The position numbers were made by a program, and so were the translations under genes. This document shows, piece by piece, positions 30,837-49,284 of a stretch of DNA of 64,000 nucleotides (position 1 is the first letter of the stretch; each line of letters opens with the position of its first letter). Origin of the DNA: Escherichia phage OliverMaurmann_Bas86; the sequence record PQ850622.1, one strand, 5' to 3'. The notes beneath the pieces are model-generated. The model was given only the letters and a program-made list of their open reading frames with translations, was not told the origin of the DNA and ran no database searches.

Positions 30837-31484
30837 TTAACTCTCCAAAGTTTTCTTCAAAGCTGCCCATGAGATTGGATAGAGTTTAGCCATCTCTTCA
30901 TCTAATGACTGAGCAAATAGTCGAACTTCATATTGAGCATGGGATGATAGTCGTTGACGACACAATTCAAACCAGCCATACAAGCTACCAGTCCAGTACC
31001 AAGTAGTTACCATACCTTGAGGTAAAACAAATCTAGCTTGTTCAGGAGCTACGAACTTAATCAATTCGTCATAACTAGCAAGAGATGCCTCGTACGCAGA
31101 GTTAAACAAAGCTAAAGCTTTTGCCTCTTCCTCCCCTTCAAGAAGTATTCCAGAACCAGAATGTAGATCATCTGGACGGGAGAAGATTTCTTTAGGTATG
31201 AAAATATCCACTGCTCCATCTTTATATCTACGACTCATCTCGTTCCAAGAAAAACCAACTTGATGCTTCTGTAACTGTCGTGCAATTGCTATAGGAGCTT
31301 CGCATCTGAAGCTCGCTTGTGGGTGACGAAAAGGACTTACGTGTCGTTCCCGAGCTAGAAAATTTATTAGACGAGTGTCACTTTCTTTTAATTCTTCCCT
31401 TTCTACCCCCATAGTTACACGAGCAGCATTGACTACTGTAAGATCTGAACCGAAGTTATCAATTAATGAAGCTTTGATTGTCAT
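30837..31484 (-). CDS. thyX: ThyX-like flavin-dependent thymidylate synthase homolog with divergent signature
   Basis: ThyX-like ..RHVSPFRHP..QLQKHQVGFSWNEMSRRY. The canonical RHR-x7-S motif reads KHQ here. Confidence 0.8.
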   Translation of the reverse strand: MTIKASLIDNFGSDLTVVNAARVTMGVEREELKESDTRLINFLARERHVSPFRHPQASFRCEAPIAIARQLQKHQVGFSWNEMSRRYKDGAVDIFIPKEIFSRPDDLHSGSGILLEGEEEAKALALFNSAYEASLASYDELIKFVAPEQARFVLPQGMVTTWYWTGSLYGWFELCRQRLSSHAQYEVRLFAQSLDEEMAKLYPISWAALKKTLES

Positions 31485-34248: not shown

Positions 34249-34782
34249 TTATACGCCTTTAGAAGCAACAACCCCATCAGAGTTATTGTAACGACCCTTC
34301 ACTGCATAGGAATCATCACCAGCGTGAGAGTGTTCAAACATAACCATTTGACCAACACGCATCCCAGCACGAACTCGTAAGCTGTGATTGTGGGTAACGT
34401 TATGGAACTCAAAGGTTAGCTTACTGCTGTTAAACCCTGCATCAGCCCACCCAGCATGTAAGTGGTTCAAACCACAACGAGCCATTGAGGAGCGAAGTAC
34501 AAACAGACTTGAGATGTTATCTGGAAGGTTAAACTCTTCCATTGAGTGCGCTAAGAAGAATTGTCCCGGAGTGATGACAATACCATCTTCAGGGATTTTC
34601 ACCTCTTTCCACTTGAGGTTTTCTTTAGCATCAATGTCAACAATGCCGTCAGCCTGTTCTTCAACAAGGATAGTATCACCAATACGGATATCCACACTAG
34701 CAGCGTTAACATATTTATGCTCCGCATCTAAAAAGCCATTATCAATAACACTGTGTAATTCTTGAGAACCTAAAAGACTCAT
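34249..34782 (-). CDS. dcd: dCTP deaminase family protein
   Basis: SVDIRIGD, LRSSMARCGL and GWADAGFNSSKLTFEFHN fit the Dcd/dUTPase trimeric fold motifs. Confidence 0.85.
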   Translation of the reverse strand: MSLLGSQELHSVIDNGFLDAEHKYVNAASVDIRIGDTILVEEQADGIVDIDAKENLKWKEVKIPEDGIVITPGQFFLAHSMEEFNLPDNISSLFVLRSSMARCGLNHLHAGWADAGFNSSKLTFEFHNVTHNHSLRVRAGMRVGQMVMFEHSHAGDDSYAVKGRYNNSDGVVASKGV

Positions 34783-36227
34783 GAGTTTCTGTTTCCTTGT
34801 ACAGATGATGCCAAATTGTTAATCATGTTACGAGCTGTTTCACGAGTCAGCGTAACACCTGCTAAGTTACTATCAAGTTCACCAACTAATTCACGAGCTG
34901 TTGCTCGGAGTTCTGCACCAAGTGTAGTGTTAGAATGAGCCAGACCATTACGACGACCGACAGGTCGAGGAGTATTGTTAGCATCATTAGCTAAAGATGC
35001 AAAACCAATACGAGCAGCTTCACGAGCGGCTATAGCTGCTACCCGATCTTCCGTAGGGGTTGGCAAATCACCAACTTCTACACGTTCTATATCACTAGAA
35101 CGTAGACCCTGAACAACAGAGCTAACTGTTTCCCATGAACGACGGGAGCGCTGCAAATCACCCATAGATGGAGAAGAAGCAGGTCGAACAGTTACTCCAC
35201 CTGTATCATGAGTGACGTGCCATGTACGAGTACCCATTCCAGAAGAACGGGCACTACCAAAACTACCAGTGAAAGTATCACGAGGTGCCTCTGTAGCAGG
35301 TGCTGCGAATCTTGTCTGTTGCCAAGAGTCACGTCTGTCAGTTCCCGGAGTCCAAGGCTGCGTAATTGCTTCAGCACCTATAGTGGTTAATCCGCTAGAC
35401 CATTCTGTCTGTAGATTAACTTCCTCGTCCAGATAACTACGACCCCTTTCCTGAGGAATGTTTAATATAGTTTCCATCATCTTCAGGGTATAATGATGAC
35501 GCTGATTCTGATATAAATTTACACCAGCCATAGGTCCAACTAAATCACTAATCAGGTGAACTTCTGGCTCACCGAAAGCTCCCATTGCAAGGTGCATGTA
35601 TTCAGTAGAACTGCTATAAACTGCAACAGTTGCTTCAGGCCACTTCTTGTGAACATACTTCATTTCACGACTAGATACCACAGGAATGTCACGAGTGTAT
35701 GACATTGCAAACAAACCTTCGTTTGACACATACAGATTACCAAGAGTCATAAACCCTTGACAGATCATAGGAAAGCGACGGCTTAAAGTATCCATATCCA
35801 AAGGTAGATTAATCATCATCTGGATTTTAACTTGATCAATCTCAATTTCCAGAATCTCTTGGAAAGTGAAAAGCGCTTCAGCATAGGTTGTCCCGTTAAC
35901 AGGCTGAATTAGTCGAGATGTAACCTGAAGCCCCTTACTTTCTGTCCAAGATAAGAAGTTGTCAAGGAATAGTGCAGCATTACCTACGTTAGCAGGGCTG
36001 TTTTCTTGACGAGTGTTCCAACGAAGCCCTCCTTGAACTAGGAAGATATCAACATCATTCGGAGTTCTATTTTGAAAGAACGTATCACGGATAGCACCAC
36101 CTGCAATAACAGGATAGATGCCATCAGGGACTACGTTATCTCTGATCAAATTACGAATCAGGTCAAGCCCTACACTGAGGGCTTCTCCTTCTTGAAGGTT
36201 CAATTCAGATAGTGGAATCTTAATCAT
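34779..36227 (-). CDS. Class II (CCA/polyA-type) nucleotidyltransferase-like N-domain plus long S/T/R/G-rich C-terminal region
   Basis: VIAGGAIRDTFFQNRTPNDVDIFL matches GG-x-x-RD..D-x-D. Residues ~270-480 are low-complexity. Confidence 0.5.
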   Translation of the reverse strand: MIKIPLSELNLQEGEALSVGLDLIRNLIRDNVVPDGIYPVIAGGAIRDTFFQNRTPNDVDIFLVQGGLRWNTRQENSPANVGNAALFLDNFLSWTESKGLQVTSRLIQPVNGTTYAEALFTFQEILEIEIDQVKIQMMINLPLDMDTLSRRFPMICQGFMTLGNLYVSNEGLFAMSYTRDIPVVSSREMKYVHKKWPEATVAVYSSSTEYMHLAMGAFGEPEVHLISDLVGPMAGVNLYQNQRHHYTLKMMETILNIPQERGRSYLDEEVNLQTEWSSGLTTIGAEAITQPWTPGTDRRDSWQQTRFAAPATEAPRDTFTGSFGSARSSGMGTRTWHVTHDTGGVTVRPASSPSMGDLQRSRRSWETVSSVVQGLRSSDIERVEVGDLPTPTEDRVAAIAAREAARIGFASLANDANNTPRPVGRRNGLAHSNTTLGAELRATARELVGELDSNLAGVTLTRETARNMINNLASSVQGNRNS

Positions 36228-38597: not shown

Positions 38598-38804
38598 TTA
38601 GTAAAACGATCGTATTTCTTCCCACACATCATCTTGCAAGTTTCTAAAACCCTGCAAGGTTTGCTTTGTTCTGTGAATAAATTCTTCAGAGTGCTTATCA
38701 GGTGTGAGCATACTGACAAACTTTTCATAGCGATTAATCTTCCACCGCATCTTCAAGTAGTCAGATTCCAGCTTTCTTAACTTCTGCCTGTCAGTTACTG
38801 TCAT
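38598..38804 (-). CDS. Hypothetical protein
   Basis: ATG at 38804 behind aggtgagaagg is preferred. The track start at 38900 would overlap GGCT-like gene 38791..39222 by 110 nt. Confidence 0.45.
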   Translation of the reverse strand: MTVTDRQKLRKLESDYLKMRWKINRYEKFVSMLTPDKHSEEFIHRTKQTLQGFRNLQDDVWEEIRSFY

Positions 38805-39222
38805 CCTTCTCACCTGCCAGATATGCTGTCCAGTCACCAGATTCAACCAGAACATCTTGTTCTTCGTCGATGTGATAAATCCACGCTTCCACAGTTTCAC
38901 CGCTGTCCAATAATACTGGAATCAGCGTACGCTTATAAAAGGTGTATGGGTTATCATTGCCACGGTGACCTTCCAGACCGTCATATGGGCCTTCCAGACC
39001 AGCTTGGGTTGTTTCAAAGACTTCTACACGAACAGGCTTACCATTGCTGTCATGCTCCAAAGATACACTTGGGAAGTATGCTGTGCAATACTGATACAGG
39101 TTACAGTTGTTTACTGTCCACCCTTCACCAATAGACACACCACCTGCACGAGCATTGATAGCATGGTTGTGTTGACCTTTTCTCAAGCTTCCGTAAGTTG
39201 CAACTAGTACTTTATCAGACAT
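38791..39222 (-). CDS. Gamma-glutamyl cyclotransferase-like (AIG2/GGCT fold) protein
   Basis: N-terminal VATYGSLRKGQHNH is the YGSL-x-x-G signature of the GGCT/AIG2 family. Confidence 0.7.
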   Translation of the reverse strand: MSDKVLVATYGSLRKGQHNHAINARAGGVSIGEGWTVNNCNLYQYCTAYFPSVSLEHDSNGKPVRVEVFETTQAGLEGPYDGLEGHRGNDNPYTFYKRTLIPVLLDSGETVEAWIYHIDEEQDVLVESGDWTAYLAGEKDDSN

Positions 39223-39288
39223 TATATTACCTTTTAGTGTTTCAGTTAAATTCGAACTAGCCTCCTCTTTCGAAGAGGCTAAAGCAAA

Positions 39289-39474
39289 TTATTCTACTTC
39301 GAAGTGTTTGATCACACCAGTCAACACATCAGATTGGAATGTACCCACTAGCTCTGTACCTCGGAAGAAGTTAACACTTGTTCCAAGTGATTCAAAGCGA
39401 TCTGCTTGAATGTCCAGAGATTGAATATTTCCTTCTGCTGACATTGTACGAAACATGATTGTGTATTTATTCAC
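39289..39474 (-). CDS. Hypothetical protein
   Basis: 61-aa ORF coupled to the upstream gene. Confidence 0.45.
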   Translation of the reverse strand: MNKYTIMFRTMSAEGNIQSLDIQADRFESLGTSVNFFRGTELVGTFQSDVLTGVIKHFEVE

Positions 39475-39713
39475 AGACTTGTTACTCCCTTATCTGCTTG
39501 TGCAATTGCGATGATACGCTCAGCACATTCCATTGAATATTTATCACCTCGTTTGAGGAAGGTGATGATTGCAGAGAACTGATTACCAATCATTCTCTTA
39601 TTTGTGATACCGAACTCTTCACAGAGTTGGTTGATAGCTTTACGAGAGCCTACAATCAGAGGCTCTTTTTCTTCGGTCATTCCACGGCTGATCAAATCTT
39701 CGATAGACAACAT
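39471..39713 (-). CDS. Hypothetical protein (possible HTH)
   Basis: 80-aa ORF. INQLCEEFGITNKRMIGNQFS is HTH-like (weak). Confidence 0.5.
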   Translation of the reverse strand: MLSIEDLISRGMTEEKEPLIVGSRKAINQLCEEFGITNKRMIGNQFSAIITFLKRGDKYSMECAERIIAIAQADKGVTSL

Positions 39714-39739
39714 TACAAATTCCTTTTTGTTTAATTTAA

Positions 39740-40975
39740 TTACAGAGTTACTGCTACTTCGCTACCTTCAACATTGACAGACTCTAACTTGCGAGGGTTA
39801 TGAATCTGTACCGGATTAACCGGAACGTTCCAACCACTACGGTAGAAGTTACGACCATCACAGAACAAAATGACATTGGCAGACATTGCATTCGGTTGCA
39901 GGTTGTTATGGACATGACGGATATCTGCAATCCAATAACCACGAGACAAAGTGTAACCAGTAGGTGCATTACGAATAGTTTGAGTATTCATCTGACCTTC
40001 CAGTTGCATCTCTTCAGGAACTACATCTACCGAATCAACTGGCTGTGCTACCTGATCTTCCAGTGCAAAGTTTTCATCATTAGCGCTTTCGCTGTCATCT
40101 ACCAACTCACCGTCTCCATCTTCAATCGGAGTCTGGTAAACCACTTTATACTGAGGAGTATAGAGAGGGTTCTGAGCTTTAACAAACTCAAGGATGTTAT
40201 GGCGGTAGGTATCCAGAGTTGTACCAGTCAGGCCCGGTGCTGTATTAACTTCCAGTACCCACGCTTCTTGACCTTTGGTGATAATATCAACTGCACCGAA
40301 ATCCAGACCCATTGATTCAACAGCTTTCACCGCATTGATCAGAGAGGCGTCATTCGGAGCATCTGTGAAGGAGCTTGAGTAAACCCAGCCAGTGTGGTGA
40401 TTACGAATATCTTCACGATAGTTAGGGTCTTCGCGATAACCATTGCGACGAATCTTCTTCTGAACATAGGTGATTACACCTTTGAACACATGAACACGCC
40501 ACTCACGACGTGGGCCTTGAATGCCTTTAGTGTACAGTTCAGCTCGACCAAGACCATCACCCGGTTCTACAACAACAATACCCGAACCAGAGTGACCAGT
40601 CAGCTCATGGCGCTCATACACAATATTACCAGTGTTTGACCACTCCTGAGCAGTCTCTTGAACATCTGTGTATTCCACAGTTTTAACACCTGCTTGGTCC
40701 ATCACACTGAAAGCACGACGTTTGTTCGCTGCCATATATAAGGCTGCGGTACGGTTAAGGACGGTTGCAGAACCAAAGAATGATTCAGGATAGCGACGGT
40801 TCCCGTAGTTAACAACCACATCACCTTCACGAGAACGCCAGCGGCTATTCTCTGAAAGAAGACCCATCACGTTAGCATTGATGCGTTCATCACGGATAGT
40901 ATCACTGATAGCAGATACTAGAGCGTTAACAGAATCAGACGGGCCATACGGAAGAACACGGATACGAGTAGTCAT
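39740..40975 (-). CDS. ATP-grasp ligase (RimK-like)
   Basis: Layout and motifs fit an ATP-grasp fold (..ANKRRAF..GV.TV.., EWRVHVFKG, DFGAVDII..WVLEVNTAPGL). The C-terminal 130 aa are unassigned. Confidence 0.75.
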   Translation of the reverse strand: MTTRIRVLPYGPSDSVNALVSAISDTIRDERINANVMGLLSENSRWRSREGDVVVNYGNRRYPESFFGSATVLNRTAALYMAANKRRAFSVMDQAGVKTVEYTDVQETAQEWSNTGNIVYERHELTGHSGSGIVVVEPGDGLGRAELYTKGIQGPRREWRVHVFKGVITYVQKKIRRNGYREDPNYREDIRNHHTGWVYSSSFTDAPNDASLINAVKAVESMGLDFGAVDIITKGQEAWVLEVNTAPGLTGTTLDTYRHNILEFVKAQNPLYTPQYKVVYQTPIEDGDGELVDDSESANDENFALEDQVAQPVDSVDVVPEEMQLEGQMNTQTIRNAPTGYTLSRGYWIADIRHVHNNLQPNAMSANVILFCDGRNFYRSGWNVPVNPVQIHNPRKLESVNVEGSEVAVTL

Positions 40976-40977
40976 TT

Positions 40978-41208
40978 TTAGATACCTTTTAGTTTAAGAA
41001 TTTCGTTACGACAGGATTGAATTTTAGCTTCGATTGCCCAATACTCAGCGAACATTTCGTCTTCTTGGGCATCGCTTGGAGAGTCAATTAAGTTAAAAGC
41101 AAACGGATACAGCTTTCGCTGCTCCGTTACCAGTTGTTGAAGTCGGAGTTGTTGATACTCCAGCATTGTCAGGTGAGGCTTAGCTCCCTTGCTTGACATG
41201 AGGCTCAA
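40978..41208 (-). CDS. Hypothetical protein
   Basis: 76-aa helical ORF. Start uncertain. Confidence 0.45.
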   Translation of the reverse strand: MSLMSSKGAKPHLTMLEYQQLRLQQLVTEQRKLYPFAFNLIDSPSDAQEDEMFAEYWAIEAKIQSCRNEILKLKGI

Positions 41209-41413
41209 CTTTAATCCCCTTCATTTTAACATAGTCAGCCAACACGTTATTGATAACGGTTGGAAAAGGGATTTCTACTGGAGAGTCAACCAGCTTCCCA
41301 ATACCTTCTTGCATCCACTTCTGGATTGCTCGGAGGTTATCACATCCTGTGCTTGTCATCGGAATACGGCGGGTAGTTACCACGTTATCCAACATCAGTT
41401 TACGAACTTCCAT
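41180..41413 (-). CDS. Hypothetical protein
   Basis: 77-aa ORF directly downstream of the GATase. Confidence 0.45.
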   Translation of the reverse strand: MEVRKLMLDNVVTTRRIPMTSTGCDNLRAIQKWMQEGIGKLVDSPVEIPFPTVINNVLADYVKMKGIKVEPHVKQGS

Positions 41414-41424
41414 AACTATACCTC

Positions 41425-43458
41425 TTAGTGTTTACCTTTACAGTAATCTGAATTACAGATCACCCTGTTTTCTTTGTTCAGTGAGCAAGTTTCTGCATCA
41501 CGCCACGGAATTTGTTTATAACAGACTGCACAAAACCCAATTGAAGTCCAGAGGGCTTTTGTAAACTCAGCTGTTCGTTGTCCATCGTAACTGACAACTG
41601 TTTTTCGGAGAGAGGTTGACTTTTCTGGAAATGTCTCCGCTTTCTCAGCGGGTACCTCCTTTGGGGCATTCTTTGGACCATAAACAGAGATGGCATAAGT
41701 ATCACCACCACGTTTTTCCAAATACGAATTAGGAACATCTGCAAGTGTGATGTCCCCTGAACGTTTTGCTGAGCTGACCATTACAATCATACGGCTAAGC
41801 ATACGTTCATCAACACGAACAGCTACTTCAGGACGACGTGGGTTGGTTGTGTCTACTGCTTTAGTCCAAATATAACCTTCAGATAGAGTAACATTCTTTA
41901 CTTTATCTTTGATTTCTTTGGAGCAGATATAACAAACGTCTTCACCACGAAGTTTACTCATTTCGTTGTCAAACTCGAAATCAGTCTTGACTTCACCACA
42001 GATAGCACATACACCCAAAGGCACATCTTCTTCCTCTTCAGAGGTTTTAGATAACGCTTCGAAGCATTCTGGATGCCAGTATGCCTGATAAGCAAACACA
42101 GCCTTACGAGCATCTTTCCAGTCAATGTGCTTATCACAACCACCACAGTCACCATGAGAGTGAGATTCCCAGAACTTACGAGTGACTTCTACACCATTCT
42201 TAGTGATGAAGGAGTCCTCTGCATCAAAAGGGATATCATCATCAAAATCAGCAGTAGTGCTTTGAGGCTCCTTATCTGTAGCATCAACAAACAGCCCTGA
42301 AGTTAGTACGAGGCGAATCATACTGTCCACTTCGGAGATACAAGCGATTGTCCCGCGATATACTACCTTTGGGTTTTCAAGAGCCTTAAGATATTCATCT
42401 TTGGCTACGTTGTGAACATCCCCTTCGACATACTCTTGGGCTTTATCATCGTAGATGTAACCAACCATCTTACCACGATCTGTGTTGTTATAAGCATGGA
42501 ACTCGTGAGGAGTAATATCCACACGACCATCACGACGATAAGGAAGACCACGATCGGCAGCCAGTTTGTTCTGGTCTTCAATCGCTTTACGACGACGAAT
42601 GTCTCCGCTTGTCACGCCGGGCTTGTCGTCTTTGTTTCCGTAAATGTCGCTTGTGCTGCTGCTTGGTTTGTTTGTCTGTTGGTTCTGATAAAGAGAGGAG
42701 TTCGAGTAATAGCCGCCCCAGCGACTCGTTACCGTAAAAACCGGAAGCTTGTGCTCCACCTCTTGAACCAGAGTCATACGACTGTTAGACACATCAAAGA
42801 TATACTCAGTTCCCACTTTACACTCGAAGTGGTCATTGATACGGTTCTTGTGGGATTTAGAACGCTCTAAAATCCACATAAGCATAGCTTCTTCAGAAGC
42901 CCCAAACCAATCCAAACCACAGCGGGCTAGGTGGAAAGGACGCTCATCATTACGGATAATGTGAAGCGTGTTGTCTTTAGCATCATGCCAAATCAAAGTG
43001 AATGCACCATCCAGTTTTTGGATAGTCTCTGCTGCTCCAATGGTGTTAATTGAGTGGCAGATGTTTTCACTATCAACTTCGAAACGCTTACTGTCAGGAA
43101 GGAGATCTTGATCTAACAGGGTTCCATTATGAACCAGAGTAATATCCCCGTGAGTAAATGGGTGAGCATTTCGAGCATTGACAGCCCCACGAGTGGCATG
43201 TCGGCTGTGACCAACAATCCACGAAGGAGGAACTACGTAGTTCGTAAGCCCTTTGGTAATATTTGTATATTCTGTCTGGAGCATAAAAGCATAAGAAGGA
43301 AGAGCTTCTTTATAAGAGAAGACTTGCTTTTCACCTTTACGCTGACCAAACACACCAGTTGAGTGCTGTCCACGGAAAACACCAGCATACAGAAGTTGGT
43401 TGAAAATGTCCAAATCTGCTGAGGTCATGTTGCCGCCAGCTAATACGATACCACAAAT
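41425..43458 (-). CDS. Class II (Ntn) glutamine amidotransferase fused to a Cys-rich zinc-ribbon region; predicted ATT start
   Basis: The frame upstream of ATG 43428 reads TAG-AAA-ATT-TGT-GGT-ATC-GTA, giving (M)CGIVLAGG, the canonical GATase-II N-terminus, behind aggtgga. HSRHATRG and NAHPF motifs are present. The C-terminal half has 3-4 CxxC pairs. Confidence 0.8.
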   Translation of the reverse strand: MCGIVLAGGNMTSADLDIFNQLLYAGVFRGQHSTGVFGQRKGEKQVFSYKEALPSYAFMLQTEYTNITKGLTNYVVPPSWIVGHSRHATRGAVNARNAHPFTHGDITLVHNGTLLDQDLLPDSKRFEVDSENICHSINTIGAAETIQKLDGAFTLIWHDAKDNTLHIIRNDERPFHLARCGLDWFGASEEAMLMWILERSKSHKNRINDHFECKVGTEYIFDVSNSRMTLVQEVEHKLPVFTVTSRWGGYYSNSSLYQNQQTNKPSSSTSDIYGNKDDKPGVTSGDIRRRKAIEDQNKLAADRGLPYRRDGRVDITPHEFHAYNNTDRGKMVGYIYDDKAQEYVEGDVHNVAKDEYLKALENPKVVYRGTIACISEVDSMIRLVLTSGLFVDATDKEPQSTTADFDDDIPFDAEDSFITKNGVEVTRKFWESHSHGDCGGCDKHIDWKDARKAVFAYQAYWHPECFEALSKTSEEEEDVPLGVCAICGEVKTDFEFDNEMSKLRGEDVCYICSKEIKDKVKNVTLSEGYIWTKAVDTTNPRRPEVAVRVDERMLSRMIVMVSSAKRSGDITLADVPNSYLEKRGGDTYAISVYGPKNAPKEVPAEKAETFPEKSTSLRKTVVSYDGQRTAEFTKALWTSIGFCAVCYKQIPWRDAETCSLNKENRVICNSDYCKGKH

Positions 43459-43535
43459 TTTCTAATCCACCTGAAGGGTAAACCCTTTCATCTAATTAAC
43501 CTTTAAATGCGCCCTGTATAAGAGCGCCCGTTGTG

Positions 43536-44636
43536 TTACAGCAGTCGTTCTAATTGCATTTCCAGAAGGTCTGGAATATAACCAGTGACGTTATCATCAC
43601 TGCTACCTGATTCACGCATCAATGCAAACATGTGACGAATTTCACGAACCGTTGCGATTCGAGTGCTTTCAATCTGAGGGGTGTAGTAGGTCATGATCTC
43701 TTCGTAGACACTGTTGGCATTACCGCGCACATATCCCAAGAAACCATAGAAGTCATTCATATCACGTAAGTTGATAAGGACTTCACCATCAGGGCCAGTC
43801 TGTTGCACACGAACACGACCAACCAAAGTCACAGATTGCTCACGACAGAAGAGAATATCACGAGCAAGACGATACCCTTCAGTGAGATCACTGTCTCTTG
43901 GAGTATAGTCTAGGGGTAGATGTTGAATCATAGGAGCGAAGCGCAGCTCATTCAACTTCTCAACATAAGCTTCATTGTCTAAATCTGCATATTCAACAGC
44001 CAGTTTCTTGAGAACCAAGAAGCGGTTGACCAGATTCAGAAGTTGGCTCTTTTTCCACTTCGGCTCTGAGATACGGAACTCAACAGAACCAAATTGAGAT
44101 AGAGGCAAAAGATTAAGGGAGGTATATTTATCCCAGCTATTAACAAGAGAGTGGAAGAAAGCTTCCCCGTCTCGGTTGAACGCTGACGAAGCATTCATAA
44201 CTTGTGCTTGAACGACAGCAAAAGCTGGACAGAAGTTGCTACGATAGCGATGGTATCCAGAACATTTGAACATCATCTTTTCATAGAACGTCCATCCAAG
44301 AATAACTTTCTTAAGGATGTTACTATCAGCGTCACGCATATCCATATGAACATGAGTGGAGCAGCGCCAAGTTCCCTCGGCTCCAGAATCCTGTACTGCT
44401 TCACTCAGATTGTTAATAGCACGAAGTAATTCTTCACCGTTGTAAGGTCGTGCACATACTAATTCACAACCATCACGAAGAGAGCCATCTTCAGTACAAA
44501 CCCACATATCAGCGTCAATGTCAGTTGTACCTTCGACTTCTAACTCAATACCAACACCACACTGAAAAGCAATACTTGGATGCGGTTCAGATAAGCGAGG
44601 GTTACGGTATCCAAAAACTTGTGCTACGGTTGTCAT
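43536..44636 (-). CDS. Amidoligase_2-family (GS-like) enzyme
   Basis: GVGIELEVEG, TEDGSLRDGCELV and CSTHVHMD match my recollection of the putative amidoligase family. Confidence 0.7.
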   Translation of the reverse strand: MTTVAQVFGYRNPRLSEPHPSIAFQCGVGIELEVEGTTDIDADMWVCTEDGSLRDGCELVCARPYNGEELLRAINNLSEAVQDSGAEGTWRCSTHVHMDMRDADSNILKKVILGWTFYEKMMFKCSGYHRYRSNFCPAFAVVQAQVMNASSAFNRDGEAFFHSLVNSWDKYTSLNLLPLSQFGSVEFRISEPKWKKSQLLNLVNRFLVLKKLAVEYADLDNEAYVEKLNELRFAPMIQHLPLDYTPRDSDLTEGYRLARDILFCREQSVTLVGRVRVQQTGPDGEVLINLRDMNDFYGFLGYVRGNANSVYEEIMTYYTPQIESTRIATVREIRHMFALMRESGSSDDNVTGYIPDLLEMQLERLL

Positions 44637-45259
44637 AATGATTCCACCAACTCTACATTATATGATGACAGGTCTGAAGAAATATGCTTGAACTTCTCCA
44701 GAAGGTTTAAAGATTGACGACCATTGTCGCCATAACCAGCTTCAAGAAGCACGTTTCCAACGTAAGCCCCTTTGTAATAAACTTTTCCATCGACAGGATT
44801 GATATAGATGAAACGAGTAACCAACCCTTCAAACTCTGGATTAAACAGGTTGTACACCAATTCACCCGGAATCGAACGACCGAGAGAAGGAGGTGCACCG
44901 CGAAGTTTGTTTCCCATCAAACCTTTAGCTCTCTGACGAACAGGGTTGATATGGGTCCAGCTCACCATGTTATTGCCATGCTGAAGGTATCCTACATCTG
45001 GAGATTCCAGAATAAGGCTGTGATCAAACACTGGTATATTGCTAACAATCTGACGTTCAAACTGACCTTCAGAGTTTTTAGTCCAACGTTCTGCCTCAAA
45101 CACTAAAGACATTTCAGCGTCGTGTGAGTAGTCGTCGATATCAAAGTTACCTTGCTGACGAACATCAAGCACATATAGAGGGAGGTTTTTACCATCAGGT
45201 GATCGCTGAGCAATCCATGTTCCACAATAATAGTGTTGAAAATCTCTTAACAAGCTCAC
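44633..45259 (-). CDS. Hypothetical protein of the amidoligase cluster
   Basis: 208-aa ORF, translationally coupled on both sides. Confidence 0.55.
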   Translation of the reverse strand: MSLLRDFQHYYCGTWIAQRSPDGKNLPLYVLDVRQQGNFDIDDYSHDAEMSLVFEAERWTKNSEGQFERQIVSNIPVFDHSLILESPDVGYLQHGNNMVSWTHINPVRQRAKGLMGNKLRGAPPSLGRSIPGELVYNLFNPEFEGLVTRFIYINPVDGKVYYKGAYVGNVLLEAGYGDNGRQSLNLLEKFKHISSDLSSYNVELVESL

Positions 45260-45268
45260 AATATCACC

Positions 45269-46078
45269 TTATACAATCTGGAGTTTAGAGGAGAATTTAT
45301 CCGCTTCTTTAACATCGTTGCTGTTGATGATGTTATGAAGCTTTTCGATTGGAAGACGAGAGTGAAGTGACATCAACACTTCCATATCACAGCCTTGAAC
45401 AACCTTATCCACTTGCTCATAAACAAACTTGCGGGTTGACTTCTCACCAATCCAGAAGTTAGAAAGAGAACGATATTCAATACCGTAGTCCTTGTAACGA
45501 ATAGCAGAAGCCTTTCCGTACAACTCTTTACGACGAGTGTCTTTATCCATGATTACAGCTGGCAAGGACAGGAAGTAATCACACAGCACACCCAACATCA
45601 TTTGAGTTTGTCGATTGATCTCCAAAGTTCCAGAGACACCGAGGTGCACATGGCCCCCAGCAGTACGCAAACCTTTATCGGTTGCGACTGGTGAAGGGTT
45701 CTTTTGTCCAGTGAAGGCGTTGAAATCAGGAGTACAGCCAAATACAAAAGCTGACGGATGGAATGATTCAAGCTCTTCTGAAGTGAACACATGAGAGCTA
45801 ATCCCAAGCGCTGCTTCCAGACCACGATCATTCAGGATTTTGTTAGTCAGATCAATACCGCGCTGAATATTATCATCAAACGCTTCAAACCCTTTCTGTG
45901 GGTTAATATCAAACTCAGCCAGAACGTTGTCTTCTTGAAGACGAACATCAGGAGCCAGATCAATTTTGTTATCTTTAGAACATCCCAGCTTACCAGCCAC
46001 AGAGGTGATAATACCGGAAGCAGTACGAACAAACATTTCCGGATCCGACCCTATTAAGAATTTACGTTTAGTAGTCAT
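45269..46078 (-). CDS. phiEco32-type COOH-NH2 ligase (GCS-like, type 2)
   Basis: N-terminal FLIGSDPEMFV and the later GGHVHLG fit my recollection of this family. Confidence 0.65.
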   Translation of the reverse strand: MTTKRKFLIGSDPEMFVRTASGIITSVAGKLGCSKDNKIDLAPDVRLQEDNVLAEFDINPQKGFEAFDDNIQRGIDLTNKILNDRGLEAALGISSHVFTSEELESFHPSAFVFGCTPDFNAFTGQKNPSPVATDKGLRTAGGHVHLGVSGTLEINRQTQMMLGVLCDYFLSLPAVIMDKDTRRKELYGKASAIRYKDYGIEYRSLSNFWIGEKSTRKFVYEQVDKVVQGCDMEVLMSLHSRLPIEKLHNIINSNDVKEADKFSSKLQIV

Positions 46079-46545
46079 GCTTTAGTCCAACCTTTATGAG
46101 ATAGATAGTTTTTAAATCTGCCACTGTGCACAGCGCCCATGTGGCCTTGATGTAAGTCGTTGCTTCTACAGAAGTCTCTAAGATTGTATATTGTTACAAC
46201 CTCGCCATCTGGAGATCTAAACTTCCAAAATCTAGCATTCCCTTTCACAGCGTTTTCTTCACTGGTCAGAAGTTGGAAATTACTTGGGTGGTTATTAAGT
46301 TTATCGCCATCGATGTGATCAACAGTCATACCATCCGGAATAGGCCCAATAAACAATTCATACATAAGTCTATGTAATAAAAAGTTCCTTGTTATCTTTT
46401 CAGGAGCCTGAACTGTTGTAAACTTAAGATAACCATCTTTATCAGGAAACAGTTTCCTCTGTTTCCCTGTTCTTGCATGGAATATACTACCGTCTTCGAA
46501 CACCAAGAAGGTAGCAACTCCGACTACTAACTCCCTAAATTCCAT
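46075..46545 (-). CDS. HNH_3 homing endonuclease
   Basis: GYLKF..LHRLMYELFIGPIPDGMTVDHIDGDKLNNHPSNFQL. Inserted inside the amidoligase cluster. Confidence 0.75.
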   Translation of the reverse strand: MEFRELVVGVATFLVFEDGSIFHARTGKQRKLFPDKDGYLKFTTVQAPEKITRNFLLHRLMYELFIGPIPDGMTVDHIDGDKLNNHPSNFQLLTSEENAVKGNARFWKFRSPDGEVVTIYNLRDFCRSNDLHQGHMGAVHSGRFKNYLSHKGWTKA

Positions 46546-46569
46546 AGAGAGCCAATAAGGAAAGCACGC

Positions 46570-47520
46570 TTAGTCATTGTAATACTCCACGAGTTCATCA
46601 AAAAGGGAAACAACACGAGCACCAGCTTCTTCTGGTGTCATTGAGGAAGGTACTGCTTGCATCAGTCGTTCGATAAAACTGCGAACAGTGATTCTGTCCA
46701 TACGCTGATCTAATACTTCTCGCTTGTGACCTGCACAAGTTGACCAGAGACGCAACCACTCACTCATACTTTCATAATGGTCAGGGTCTTGGTCACGACG
46801 GCGTGCCATACGACGGAGAACTCCATCATTATGGTTTCGTACATAACCATCTCGGTTATCATCAACACCGAACACATTCTGAACCCATACGTTTTCAGAA
46901 AATTCATCAGTGGTGCAAATTAGTGGCAGAAATGCAATTGCACTCATGTCACCATCAAAATAAGTCGCTGCTGACTCATCGGTTGAGTCTACGTCATTAC
47001 TATAACACCAGCGACCAAAGAAGTTACGACTTAAACCAGCTAAGCGTAGAGCTAAACCGATTCGTTGTCGCTTAAGCAACTCTTCCTTGTCTTGTACGCC
47101 TTCCTGAAGGAACTCCATTCCATTAAAATCACCATCCAAATAGCTACGGATGGTCATTAGTCCAGTAAACACCTTGTCTGCTGGATGGTTTCGAAGGTTC
47201 ACGGCAATGGAGTTCACCGAAGTGACAGAGAACATATCTTTATAGCAAGACATTGAGTTAAAAATGTCTGTTGCTTCAACTAAAGCTCTTTCGATATCTT
47301 TAGCCGGCACGCCATAAAAATTGTGAGGCCAGAAGTTAATAACTTCAATTTCTGAAGTTCTGTCACGAAGGCTTGTTCGGTTACGACTTTCACCGTTAAT
47401 GTCTGTAACAGAATACATGTGCATACAGTTAAAAGTACCAAAGCAAGCTCTTCCTTTGAACACTGACTCACCGAAATCCTCTGCCGGTGTTACCGGAGCA
47501 ATCGATGCGGAGATTGACAT
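46570..47520 (-). CDS. Hypothetical protein of the amidoligase cluster
   Basis: 316-aa ORF. No motif recognised. Confidence 0.55.
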   Translation of the reverse strand: MSISASIAPVTPAEDFGESVFKGRACFGTFNCMHMYSVTDINGESRNRTSLRDRTSEIEVINFWPHNFYGVPAKDIERALVEATDIFNSMSCYKDMFSVTSVNSIAVNLRNHPADKVFTGLMTIRSYLDGDFNGMEFLQEGVQDKEELLKRQRIGLALRLAGLSRNFFGRWCYSNDVDSTDESAATYFDGDMSAIAFLPLICTTDEFSENVWVQNVFGVDDNRDGYVRNHNDGVLRRMARRRDQDPDHYESMSEWLRLWSTCAGHKREVLDQRMDRITVRSFIERLMQAVPSSMTPEEAGARVVSLFDELVEYYND

Positions 47521-47528
47521 ATTCGCCT

Positions 47529-48746
47529 CTATTTATTAAAGAATAATTTTTCCATAATGGTTTCCCACTCTTCTGAGGGGAGGGTTGAGAACCCGTTTCC
47601 GTGAAGCCTGTTTGTCATGCAACTAATAATATTGTACATGTTGTAGCTTCGGGTGGATTCTGTTCCATTGTTCCAGTTATAACCGAAAACAATTTTATCG
47701 AAGGAGGTTTTATCCGTAGTTACTTCTCGGATGAACTCAACCAAGAGCGATTTCTCTGTGATGACCGCACGTTCACCATCTGGCAGATTACAATACTGAG
47801 GAAGAAGGATTGGTAAGAACATCGAATTGTTCACTCGACAATCGCGCACACCTTCACTGCGATAGATTAGGCTTGAGAAGTCTTCATCACGCAGGTGTCC
47901 TTCACCTTCAGTGTATTCACACTGTCGCCATTTGGTCTGGCGAGGTTCAACCATTGTACTACCAACGCCTACTGTATACAGAGACGCTTGGAAGATACAT
48001 GAATCGTAATCATTCCCTGTTAAAGCAACTTGCTCATTGCCGAACACATCCACTGAAGAGTTGATCAGTCGGCTGAATGCAAGAGAGGCTAAAGGGGACC
48101 AACCTTTCTTATACATCTTGTTCAACATTTCATACACAGCAGATTTTTCATCATCTGTATAGAATGTACGATTCAGCATCAGATAGAACAGAGCGCGATC
48201 AGCAGGACAACCATCAGTACAAACACCCATGAATCCTACTTCATGCCATACCAGACATGAGTCAGAATCCTTATCCATGAATGCTTCAAAGGCTTCCATT
48301 ACAGCCCTGTCAGTAACATCAGGACGGTTGTTTTCTTCTGCCCATGTTTCTACATGAGAAGGAGGACGAGGGTCTCCATTCTCCACCCCTTCGCGGAAAT
48401 ATTGAGTGGTAATAGGCTTTTTATCACCATAACGTTTTACACCATAAGCGGGAAGGTGTGTACCAGAGTTCCAGATGTACTTAATTTCGGACATAGGCAT
48501 CATGTTTTCAAGAACGTTCTCTTCAGCAGTGCCTTGACGAACCATCATATTTTCACTCCACACCTTAATGCGGATATTCCAGCCGTAGTTGCTGTCATAC
48601 GTGTTATAATAATCAGGATCACCATCTTCATCTTCATCATAATCACCACCCTGATAGTAACCTGCTTTCAGGAAACCATAACAAGGAGGCCAGATGGTTA
48701 CAACATCATCTGATTCTTTCCAGCTTTGAAGTGTTACAGGGAACAT
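47529..48746 (-). CDS. Hypothetical protein of the amidoligase cluster
   Basis: 405-aa ORF. Acidic D/E/Y-rich insert near the N-terminus. Confidence 0.55.
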   Translation of the reverse strand: MFPVTLQSWKESDDVVTIWPPCYGFLKAGYYQGGDYDEDEDGDPDYYNTYDSNYGWNIRIKVWSENMMVRQGTAEENVLENMMPMSEIKYIWNSGTHLPAYGVKRYGDKKPITTQYFREGVENGDPRPPSHVETWAEENNRPDVTDRAVMEAFEAFMDKDSDSCLVWHEVGFMGVCTDGCPADRALFYLMLNRTFYTDDEKSAVYEMLNKMYKKGWSPLASLAFSRLINSSVDVFGNEQVALTGNDYDSCIFQASLYTVGVGSTMVEPRQTKWRQCEYTEGEGHLRDEDFSSLIYRSEGVRDCRVNNSMFLPILLPQYCNLPDGERAVITEKSLLVEFIREVTTDKTSFDKIVFGYNWNNGTESTRSYNMYNIISCMTNRLHGNGFSTLPSEEWETIMEKLFFNK

Positions 48747-48757
48747 CTTTTACCTCT

Positions 48758-49120
48758 TTACTCTGCTACCAAAAGGCTCAGAGATTTGCGAATGTAGTCA
48801 ATACTACGGAAGTTTCGATAGTTCTCTTGGAAGCGCATTTTTTCAAACTCTGCTTCCTGAAGCTCTACCTCTGCTGCTTTATATCCTGATAAAGCTAAAC
48901 TTACCACATCCTGAGGTAAGGTATTACGACGGCGAATAAGATATTTATTCGCTTTTAGTTTACCTTGTGCACGAGCCATTTTGGCCTTTGCCGCCTTGAT
49001 ACCATGAGAAATCCAAAGCAGTTGCTGTTTCAGATCTTCCTCATCCATACCACCTAAATCATTTGCTACTTTATGAAGCGTAGACAGGTTCACATGGCCT
49101 TTAATGGGGCGTAGGTTCAT
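48758..49120 (-). CDS. Hypothetical helical protein
   Basis: 120-aa ORF. Confidence 0.5.
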   Translation of the reverse strand: MNLRPIKGHVNLSTLHKVANDLGGMDEEDLKQQLLWISHGIKAAKAKMARAQGKLKANKYLIRRRNTLPQDVVSLALSGYKAAEVELQEAEFEKMRFQENYRNFRSIDYIRKSLSLLVAE

Positions 49121-49284
49121 AACTTCTCCTGTTTGTCACATTGATTGGTTAGCCAGTTGTAAGACCCTCTGTTATTCTTGCTTAACTCGCAAGATGCAAA
49201 AGAGTACATCCTGACAAACCCCACAGTGGCTAAGCAAATAAAGATTGCTGCCAATAAGAATTTAGCTTTCAACTTATTATCCAT
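49117..49284 (-). CDS. Small membrane-anchored protein (55 aa, below track cutoff)
   Basis: MDNKLKAKFLLAAIFICLATVGFV.. RBS agagg. The TGA overlaps the next ATG. Confidence 0.45.
   Translation of the reverse strand: MDNKLKAKFLLAAIFICLATVGFVRMYSFASCELSKNNRGSYNWLTNQCDKQEKL

Follow-up and report, generated by a model that had tools for sequence, protein, structure and literature searches.

An amide-ligase cassette of Escherichia phage OliverMaurmann_Bas86 and its relatives: near-fixed gene content and a candidate glutamyl-derived product

The question raised by the 64,000-nucleotide stretch of Escherichia phage OliverMaurmann_Bas86 analysed here (sequence record PQ850622.1; hereafter the window) is what might be made by the block of amide-ligase genes that occupies positions 38791-48746, all of them on the minus strand. 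The answer proposed, and held tentatively, is that the block constitutes a widespread, early-expressed phage pathway which may build and then trim an amide-linked compound derived from glutamate or glutamine, likely a small molecule. Iyer, Abhiman, Burroughs and Aravind reportedly flagged in 2009 the phiEco32 neighbourhood that combines a COOH-NH2 ligase, an Amidoligase_2, a class II glutamine amidotransferase (GAT-II), an ATP-grasp protein and an AIG2 protein, and individual genes of the cassette are routinely annotated in phage genome papers. As a feature the cassette is already known, and it counts as a known unknown, not as a novel type of system; the view taken in the initial annotation of this DNA, that no product had been experimentally defined, still holds 17 years after the neighbourhood was flagged, in that neither a biochemical characterisation nor a report of a product was found in the searchable full-text literature, most subscription journals lying outside its coverage. 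Not encountered in the literature examined were the core status of the protein designated X3, the alternation of two enzymes, GGACT and C26, in one position, the fixed site beside primase/helicase, and a recurrent AUU start codon.

Gene content, order and expression of the cassette

The open reading frames (ORFs) of the initial annotation were all recovered in place and on the minus strand, and gene layout together with family matches bore out its description of one co-directional, tightly packed block of enzymes with glutamate/glutamine-type carboxyl-amine chemistry. Because every gene lies on the minus strand, the block is transcribed from high to low coordinates; the junctions between successive genes range from -20 to +26 nt, with the exception of 77 nt before GAT-II and 66 nt before GGACT. 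Taken in the direction of transcription, the core genes are those for the phiEco32-type COOH-NH2 ligase (45269-46078), X3 (44633-45259; 208 amino acids), Amidoligase_2 (43536-44636), the class II (Ntn) glutamine amidotransferase GAT-II (41425-43458; 677 amino acids) and the RimK-like ATP-grasp ligase (39740-40975), and the block ends with a GGACT/AIG2-like cyclotransferase (38791-39222).

At the DNA level the block was matched in 98 GenBank phage records, nearly all from Kuravirus-like podoviruses of E. coli and Shigella. Escherichia phage vB_EcoP_SU7 is 97.3% identical to the region over its whole length and the BASEL phage AnnaHegner_Bas87 99.1% identical over 95% of it, and the source phage is assigned to the Gordonclarkvirinae, close to the genus Suseptimavirus. 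When the COOH-NH2 ligase was used as a tblastn query, 311 phage records were returned, among them 121 Pseudomonas phages, phages of Vibrio, Aeromonas, Proteus, Cronobacter, Salmonella and Sinorhizobium, Zobellviridae associated with oysters and a crAss-like phage from the human gut; where neighbourhoods were annotated, they contained this gene set again. A ligase profile scan revealed a relative encoded on at least 518 IMG/VR contigs. The best 80 of these contigs plus seven GenBank loci made up a set of 87 loci in which ORFs were called and iterative profile searches seeded with each window protein conducted; the 52 loci in which sequence extended for at least 3 kb on the upstream side of the ligase and 7 kb on its downstream side served as a full-context set.

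Throughout the 87 loci the order COOH-NH2 ligase, X3, Amidoligase_2, GAT-II, ATP-grasp was nearly invariant, and the conservation and synteny named in the initial annotation as a means of checking it are confirmed by this near-fixed core order and by the 98 GenBank records; the grouping is no product of chance. GAT-II, Amidoligase_2 and the ATP-grasp ligase were each present in every one of the 52 full-context loci (Amidoligase_2 indeed in 87 of 87), and X3 was detected in 47 of the 52, from which distribution it is counted as a member of the near-universal core. Primase/helicase was detected in 40 of the 52 loci at a median distance of 725 bp downstream of the cassette, and the constancy of this position next to replication genes suggests a role during genome replication. 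Two named phages illustrate the pattern. Pseudomonas phage TL encodes, in order, two proteins of ~320-340 amino acids, the COOH-NH2 ligase, a protein of 189 amino acids, the amidoligase, the class II amidotransferase, a 73-amino-acid ORF, the ATP-grasp, a GGCT, primase/helicase and a polymerase exonuclease subunit, which matches the window gene for gene, while phiEco32 itself (locus L010) has an identical gene order from orf120 to the nucleotidyltransferase. The link to the phiEco32 neighbourhood drawn in the initial annotation is established by this identity and by the description of Pfam family PF14395, which names phiEco32; the two blocks are the same in kind, an extra HNH endonuclease being a feature of the present copy.

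Residues with expected functions were at least 90% conserved in all five enzyme families (41-81 distinct sequences per family), and the cassette enzymes look active on that basis. Expression of at least three of the proteins has been recorded in a relative: the proteins identified by mass spectrometry in a concentrated preparation of phage SU10 included the ATP-grasp, the amidotransferase, the YtfP/GGACT protein and a hypothetical protein of 23.3 kDa, all listed as early gene products, the last of which is possibly X3, to judge from its mass alone. When a Bruynoghevirus was subjected to directed evolution, missense changes arose in the amidoligase and the amidotransferase of both evolved lines.

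The constituent enzymes and X3

When put to profile searches, the family assignments of the initial annotation were upheld above the Pfam gathering thresholds for GGACT, the class II glutaminase, Amidoligase_2 and the COOH-NH2 ligase. The best available clue to the chemistry of the cassette is the alternation of two enzymes in the position of the first of these. In the window the position is occupied by GGACT (PF06094, 8.9e-16, 59.0 bits against a cut-off of 22.8, residues 8-132), which carries the sequences VATYGSLRKG and ...GLEG..., with Y10, G11, L13 and E84 at least 90% conserved in 41 cassette homologues; the YGSL motif and E84 are taken here to be the substrate-binding and catalytic residues. 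The alternative is a C26-like gene product of ~205 amino acids which matched Pfam Peptidase_C26 at 2.6e-12, as against 0.042 for class I GATase. The full-context loci comprised 27 with GGACT only, 23 with C26 only, two with both and none with neither, and in each of the six loci of the full set that had neither enzyme the contig ended close to the ligase. Enzymes of the GGACT/GGCT type release 5-oxoproline from gamma-glutamyl amides, gamma-glutamyl-epsilon-lysine being the defining substrate of GGACT, and the C26 enzymes PuuD and folyl-gamma-glutamyl hydrolase hydrolyse gamma-glutamyl amide bonds as well. Since two unrelated folds occupy one slot, a gamma-glutamyl amide would seem to be made and later cleaved, and the cleaving step appears obligatory.

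Two ligases of the glutamine synthetase/glutamate-cysteine ligase (GS/GCL) superfamily are encoded upstream. The COOH-NH2 ligase, ~79% identical to proteins of the phiEco32 group, matched PF14395 at 2.7e-8 (33.8 bits against a gathering threshold of 25) and PHROG 3815 at 2.6e-111, and an alignment of 74 distinct sequences showed at least 90% conservation of D12, E14, Q48, E49, D50, E55, C115, R138, H143, H145, R183, R194, E201 and R203. Amidoligase_2 matched PF12224 at 3.1e-8 (34.2 bits against 22) and PHROG 7469 at 4.1e-142, the residues conserved to the same extent being E31/E33/E35, D50, S52, R54, E58, H95, H97, E119, E186 and R188. Searches of PDB sequences with both ligases, with X3 and with the 316-amino-acid protein X2 returned nothing useful.

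X3 is always encoded between the two ligases, and in the window its gene overlaps the start of Amidoligase_2, an arrangement that suggests translational coupling. Its model is that of a tandem small beta-barrel protein, non-catalytic and bearing a conserved basic loop, Arg-Gln-x-x-Lys/Arg-Gly, in which position 112 is Lys or Arg. In the model Lys163, invariant in close and medium relatives, is located at the beta-hairpin tip of an SH3/KOW-like barrel, which is where the modified lysine of EF-P sits. Lys163 was dropped as a general covalent acceptor, lysine being found there in only 51% of 68 distant homologues, and a profile comparison directed at fusion of X3 to the N-terminus of the long crAss-like amidoligase was likewise negative. 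Of the three sizeable proteins of 208, 316 and 405 amino acids to which the initial annotation assigned no family, all were present, and only X3, the first, belongs to the widely conserved core.

GAT-II matched Pfam GATase_6 at 2.6e-14 (53.8 bits against 27) and GATase_7 marginally (25.1 against 25), and its residues 2-193 align with positions 2-198 of the NCBIfam GlmS model such that residue 2 corresponds to GlmS position 2. The start at 43458 given in the initial annotation proved correct, even though the codon concerned (43456-43458, minus strand) is ATT and a mechanical ORF call begins at the ATG at 43428: an in-frame TAG is followed by AAA ATT TGT GGT ATC GTA, and translation from the ATT yields M-CGIVLAGG, in which the catalytic cysteine comes next to the initiator, the position demanded of it in class II (Ntn) amidotransferases. 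Of the 65 cassette GAT-II genes examined, 63 have a cysteine codon immediately after the start. In 63 distinct genes in which a motif search found the catalytic cysteine, the codon preceding it was ATG (52), ATT (8), ATC (1), TTG (1) or GTG (1); the rare start was noted at loci L010, L011, L016, L067, L073, L083, L085 and L006 also. As AUU starts are very rare in E. coli, where infC and pcnB are the known instances, translation of GAT-II may be low or IF3-sensitive. The RNA around the ATT codon folded no better than shuffled sequence (z = 0.14), and database gene callers shorten the protein to an internal ATG, as in a form of 667 amino acids.

The motifs HSRHATRG, VHNG and VDSE of GAT-II align with the R73, N98-G99 and D123 motifs of an E. 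coli GlmS N-domain sequence, and the Arg, Asn-Gly and Asp residues concerned are at least 90% conserved in 81 homologues. No synthase domain of the SIS, PRTase or AANH type was found by Pfam or NCBIfam after the glutaminase domain. The NCBIfam scores for GlmS, PurF and AsnB (41, 23 and 19 bits against cut-offs of 381, 350 and 267) concern the N-terminal domain only, and the label 'glucosamine-6-phosphate aminotransferase' is unjustified because the GlmS score is both so confined and far below its cut-off. Across the C-terminal 440 residues no Pfam family was matched except for a sub-threshold LIM hit, and homologues of this domain are all phage-like, share the same architecture and have no Pfam domain. 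This half of the protein contains three Zn-ribbon-like modules, ZnR1 (CxxC...HxxC: C438, C441, H462 and C465), ZnR2 (CxxC...CxxC: C484, C487, C509 and C512) and ZnR3 (CxxC plus three Cys: C643, C646, C658, C668 and C673), the Cys and His residues of which are 100% conserved among close homologues. The modules are regarded as lineage-specific additions, since a CxxC motif is entirely missing from 42 of the 80 GAT-II proteins of the cassettes. Two of them share the pattern CxxC-x-K-x-I-x-W-x-DA (window 41425-42150, minus strand, the C-terminal third of GAT-II), and a similar terminal module was found in Lahexavirus and Pseudomonas phage K4.

The ATP-grasp assignment of the initial annotation stood at the level of the superfamily, the Pfam RimK match (7.3e-4, 19.6 bits) falling just below the gathering threshold of 21. 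PHROG 2599 was matched at 5.8e-169; the NCBIfam matches were to MptN (5.8e-9, 35 bits against 350), rimK_fam (2.9e-6), RimK (22 bits against 331) and CofF (15 against 300), all of these scores lying far below the family cut-offs, and the RimK structures 5zct and 4iwx were matched at 2e-3. Several profiles converge on residues 193-265, within which D230, E242 and N244 (VLEVNTAPG) are at least 90% conserved in 76 homologues and presumably correspond to the Mg-binding E-x-N pattern of ATP-grasp enzymes. The product of 39740-40975 is accordingly classed, from its profile matches, as an ATP-grasp ligase nearest the alpha-L-glutamate ligases and not as a RimK orthologue, and because its scores lie below the RimK, MptN and CofF cut-offs, the PHROG label 'ribosomal protein S6 glutaminyl transferase' denotes a resemblance only. 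RimK, MptN and CofF remain its best sequence relatives, whose metal-binding residues it retains; by way of contrast with them, the phage protein has added an acidic linker and a C-terminal domain of ~110 residues (PHROG 20552). Matches to D-Ala-D-Ala ligases were weak, and weaker than those to the RimK family.

Candidate products and targets

From these family memberships we infer the following order of chemical steps and class of product. Given the chemistry of the GS/GCL family, the COOH-NH2 ligase and Amidoligase_2 would join carboxylates to amines at the expense of ATP, at least one of the resultant bonds being a gamma-glutamyl amide, and the RimK-like ATP-grasp would attach an amino acid, probably glutamate, through an alpha linkage to a terminal carboxylate. 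GAT-II, having no synthase domain of its own, would deliver glutamine-derived ammonia to a partner ligase for the amidation of a carboxylate, or might alternatively act, like EgtC, as a gamma-glutamyl amidohydrolase. GGACT, with release of 5-oxoproline, or the Peptidase_C26-type hydrolase would then remove the gamma-glutamyl group and thereby mature or release the product, a step taken as obligatory because one or other enzyme is encoded in 52 of 52 loci. X3 would serve as a beta-barrel partner of the two ligases, its Arg-Gln-x-x-Lys/Arg-Gly loop binding or presenting an acidic or phosphorylated substrate. Small molecules are the known substrates of GGACT, GGCT, ChaC and BtrG and of the C26 enzymes PuuD and folyl-gamma-glutamyl hydrolase, and they are also what most enzymes of the GS/GCL and class II amidotransferase types act on; a small-molecule product consequently fits best. 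Among the candidate roles listed in the initial annotation, a gamma-glutamyl small molecule thus emerges as the best fit, peptide tagging of a protein as possible, and hypermodification of nucleotides or DNA as the least supported.

The same pairing of superfamilies is found in established pathways that deploy a removable gamma-glutamyl handle: butirosin synthesis (BtrJ ATP-grasp, BtrI carrier and BtrG cyclotransferase), ergothioneine synthesis (EgtA GCL-type ligase and EgtC class II amidohydrolase) and putrescine utilisation (PuuA GS-type ligase and PuuD C26 hydrolase). In each, a GS/GCL or ATP-grasp enzyme installs glutamate and an AIG2, Ntn or C26 enzyme removes it. The likeness does not extend to orthology, the phage proteins matching NCBIfam EgtC only at 0.006 and MptN and RimK far below their cut-offs, and the cassette differs further in having three ligases rather than one and no acyl carrier protein, pyridoxal phosphate enzyme, oxidase or methyltransferase. 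The glutathione/gamma-glutamyl cycle (GshA, GshB and GGCT/ChaC) likewise brings together a GCL-type ligase, an ATP-grasp and a GGCT-fold cyclotransferase, as the cassette does; however, the phage proteins have no GshA or GshB sequence match, and nothing in glutathione synthesis corresponds to the second ligase, the glutaminase or X3. A further point of likeness is a protein with a thioredoxin domain, encoded by the phage close to its genes for nucleotide metabolism.

Several considerations weigh against a pathway of this type. Every one of its chemical steps is extrapolated from superfamily membership, and RimK, PafA and LysX are all enzymes that act on proteins. The GAT-II Zn ribbons and the basic loop of X3 would also suit the binding of nucleic acid or protein. 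The sample is biased, as the 80 loci retrieved were those that matched the query best, the complementarity of GGACT and C26 is a count of loci rather than of independent events and may reflect few ancient swaps, and the protein with the C26 fold may, instead of a hydrolase, be a class I glutaminase. In addition, the BASEL study leaves unexplained the mechanism by which Gordonclarkvirinae resist restriction-modification systems.

Attachment of glutamate or a short glutamyl chain by the ligases to a host or phage protein is considered unlikely, albeit a genuine contender. It could take the form of RimK-like C-terminal polyglutamylation or of a pupylation-like gamma-glutamyl-lysine isopeptide, with GGACT or C26 either acting on the isopeptide once it is released or editing the tag, and X3 serving as adaptor or target. 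Consistent with such tagging are the RimK enzymes that are the closest solved relatives of the ATP-grasp and that glutamylate ribosomal protein S6, the placing of the non-enzymatic X3, with its conserved exposed loop, between the ligases, and the very substrate that defines GGACT. Yet none of the small ORFs of the block ends in the GGQ or GGE of a Pup-like protein or in an acidic EDWGE tail like that of LysW, X3 offers no acceptor lysine that is universally conserved, either at Lys163 or at position 112, and known GGACT and C26 enzymes spare intact proteins. The narrower proposal that the cassette is a phage conjugation system analogous to pupylation, in which GS/GCL-type ligases attach a glutamyl-derived tag to a macromolecule by a gamma-glutamyl-amine bond, X3 would be the adaptor and the tag would be edited or recycled by a cyclotransferase or hydrolase dedicated to it, is decidedly unlikely; were it true, the cassette would represent a novel form of post-translational marking by viruses, used by hundreds of phage lineages as they replicate. 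Compared with pupylation proper (PafA, Dop and Pup), neither a Pup-like GGQ/GGE protein nor orthologues of PafA and Dop were found in the block, and compared with LysW/LysX carrier systems the small acidic Zn-ribbon carrier ending in EDWGE is missing from it and X3 has no conserved C-terminal Glu.

A different destination for the same chemistry would be a cell-envelope precursor, the peptide stem of UDP-MurNAc-peptide, lipid II or a surface polymer being amidated or glutamylated so as to block superinfection or alter the timing of lysis, and this we judge improbable. Ddl-like ATP-grasp enzymes and class II amidotransferases of the asparagine-synthetase type do act on peptidoglycan stems, the phage ATP-grasp gives its weak D-Ala-D-Ala ligase matches, and as the hosts of cassette-bearing phages span Proteobacteria and Bacteroidota the target should be a universal one. 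The idea is, moreover, credited to Iyer et al. 2009 in a 2023 paper (PMC10580990), which cites that work for a predicted modification of the cell wall by the phiEco32 amidoligase and amidotransferase. Set against this, the cassette is located in the early/replication module, upstream of primase/helicase and not with the lysis or structural genes, Pfam and PHROG revealed no Mur ligase, transpeptidase or membrane protein within it, the RimK-family matches of the ATP-grasp are the stronger, and the obligatory removal of a gamma-glutamyl group has no counterpart in known peptidoglycan amidation.

The restriction-modification resistance of the Gordonclarkvirinae raises the remaining candidate, an amino-acid-type hypermodification of phage DNA or of nucleotide precursors that would account for it. 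The BASEL study reports the resistance as marked and without a known modification pathway; nine EcoRI and 18 EcoRV sites are present in the window, so that avoidance of sites fails to explain resistance to these two enzymes; the cassette stands constantly beside replication genes; and the Zn ribbons and X3 basic loop could bind nucleic acid. However, phage tf has this cassette too, and its DNA was digested with RsaI, HpaI, EcoRV, SmaI and HaeIII and cloned, the termini of phiEco32 were mapped via restriction profiling, and the BASEL authors themselves point to a dCTP deaminase and a nucleotidyltransferase rather than to this cassette. The genome does, on the other hand, strongly avoid certain other sites (CCWGG, none against about 79 expected; GATC, 139 against 285 expected). 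The thymidylate synthase is ThyX (Thy1, 4.7e-43) and not a hydroxymethylase, and family scans of the cluster ORFs revealed no hydroxymethylase, 5-hydroxymethyldeoxyuridine (5-hmdU) kinase, or glycosyl or pyrophosphoryl transferase. According to Lee et al. 2018, thymidine hypermodification is said to involve a ThyA-like dUMP hydroxymethylase, a 5-hmdU DNA kinase and an aGPT-Pplase transferase; neither a kinase nor an aGPT-Pplase was recorded in the scans of the cluster ORFs, in which X2 and the 405-amino-acid X1 received no assignment. DNA hypermodification is consequently disfavoured as very improbable and the least supported of the candidate roles.

Two observations on the wider window touch on the same subject. 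Sites for PstI, SacI, NcoI, SphI and MscI are all absent from positions 1-64000, as against 5-14 expected for each. The genes for ThyX (30837-31484), dCTP deaminase (34249-34782) and the nucleotidyltransferase (34779-36227), on the minus strand, are situated downstream of the cassette and replication genes; the last encodes 482 amino acids, is annotated as related to class II CCA-adding enzymes and has a long low-complexity C-terminal tail.

Lineage-specific genes and significance

The remaining genes of the block are for the most part confined to close relatives. X1 (47529-48746), for which there was no Pfam or NCBIfam match and only a match to PHROG 13063, is present in nine of the 87 loci, with no relatives detected outside the Kuravirus-like group. 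X2 (46570-47520), which yields a confident structure model yet has no solid structural relative, is remotely related both to a Lahexavirus protein and to a family of ~300 amino acids from 25 metagenomic loci (E 4.5e-5), each encoded at the same position. No similarity was found that would make X1 and X2 paralogues or homologues of gp13 and gp14 of phage TL. X1 is thus interpreted as a lineage-specific addition, as is X2 apart from its weak remote relatives.

The smaller ORFs comprise X4 (41180-41413; 77 amino acids), which is a DUF7195 protein (PF23825, 3.3e-19) present in 17 of the 87 loci and aligns with the gene that takes this place in the cassettes of Lahexavirus and Bruynoghevirus, and ORFs of 73 (40978-41199, annotated in Bas87), 80 (39471-39713) and 61 (39289-39474) amino acids for which family scans gave no match. 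The 61-amino-acid ORF is found in six of the 87 loci, while X1, X2 and the ORFs of 120, 73 and 80 amino acids are restricted to nine Kuravirus-like loci. DUF7195 and the other small ORFs are likewise interpreted, from this distribution, as additions of the Kuravirus-like lineage. Two further ORFs of 120 and 55 amino acids (48758-49284, minus strand) head the same co-directional block in the ORF list, and just upstream of them a terminator-like hairpin and T-run was noted at 49329-49312 (minus strand, a consensus match only). A sigma-70-like promoter match, TTAACT-17-TATAAT, again by consensus only, is located at 39249-39221 (minus strand) in the 66-nt gap before GGACT, promoter-like sites being fewer across the region than in shuffled sequence.

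One gene of the block was passed over in the initial annotation, a 156-amino-acid HNH homing endonuclease (46075-46545; Pfam HNH_3, 2.8e-17) situated between X2 and the COOH-NH2 ligase, the start of which it overlaps by 4 nt. It is regarded as an insertion and not as a cluster member because it is missing from the same junction in the 99%-identical Bas87. HNH genes were also found elsewhere in the cassette, at the amidoligase/GATase junction of UFV-P2 and between GAT-II and the ligase of phiM6, and homing seems to have targeted the conserved genes of the cassette repeatedly. Pfam scans of neighbouring uncharacterised proteins from six other phages produced a match for one only, TL gp12 (locus L002, 4011-4835), which is annotated as a 'lipoprotein' and is in fact an SPFH/Band_7 protein (1.7e-21); it is encoded just upstream of the TL cassette and recurs in four Bruynoghevirus loci, with no counterpart in the window.

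The retention of a near-fixed cassette of five to eight genes beside the replication genes implies a chemistry that these viruses need, and they infect hosts as diverse as Escherichia, Pseudomonas, Aeromonas, Vibrio, Sinorhizobium and marine bacteria, with one gut crAss-like phage in addition. The search for that chemistry has been narrowed by the apparently obligatory gamma-glutamyl cleavage, by the identification of X3 as a non-enzymatic partner within the core, and by the improbability of DNA hypermodification. Because Bas87 infects E. coli K-12 with restored O-antigen, the question can be addressed by gene deletion, metabolomics and reconstitution. A defined product would correct labels such as 'glucosamine-6-phosphate aminotransferase' and 'S6 glutaminyl transferase', and could reveal a new viral metabolite or modification, made by a cassette that is widespread, evidently functional and experimentally tractable.

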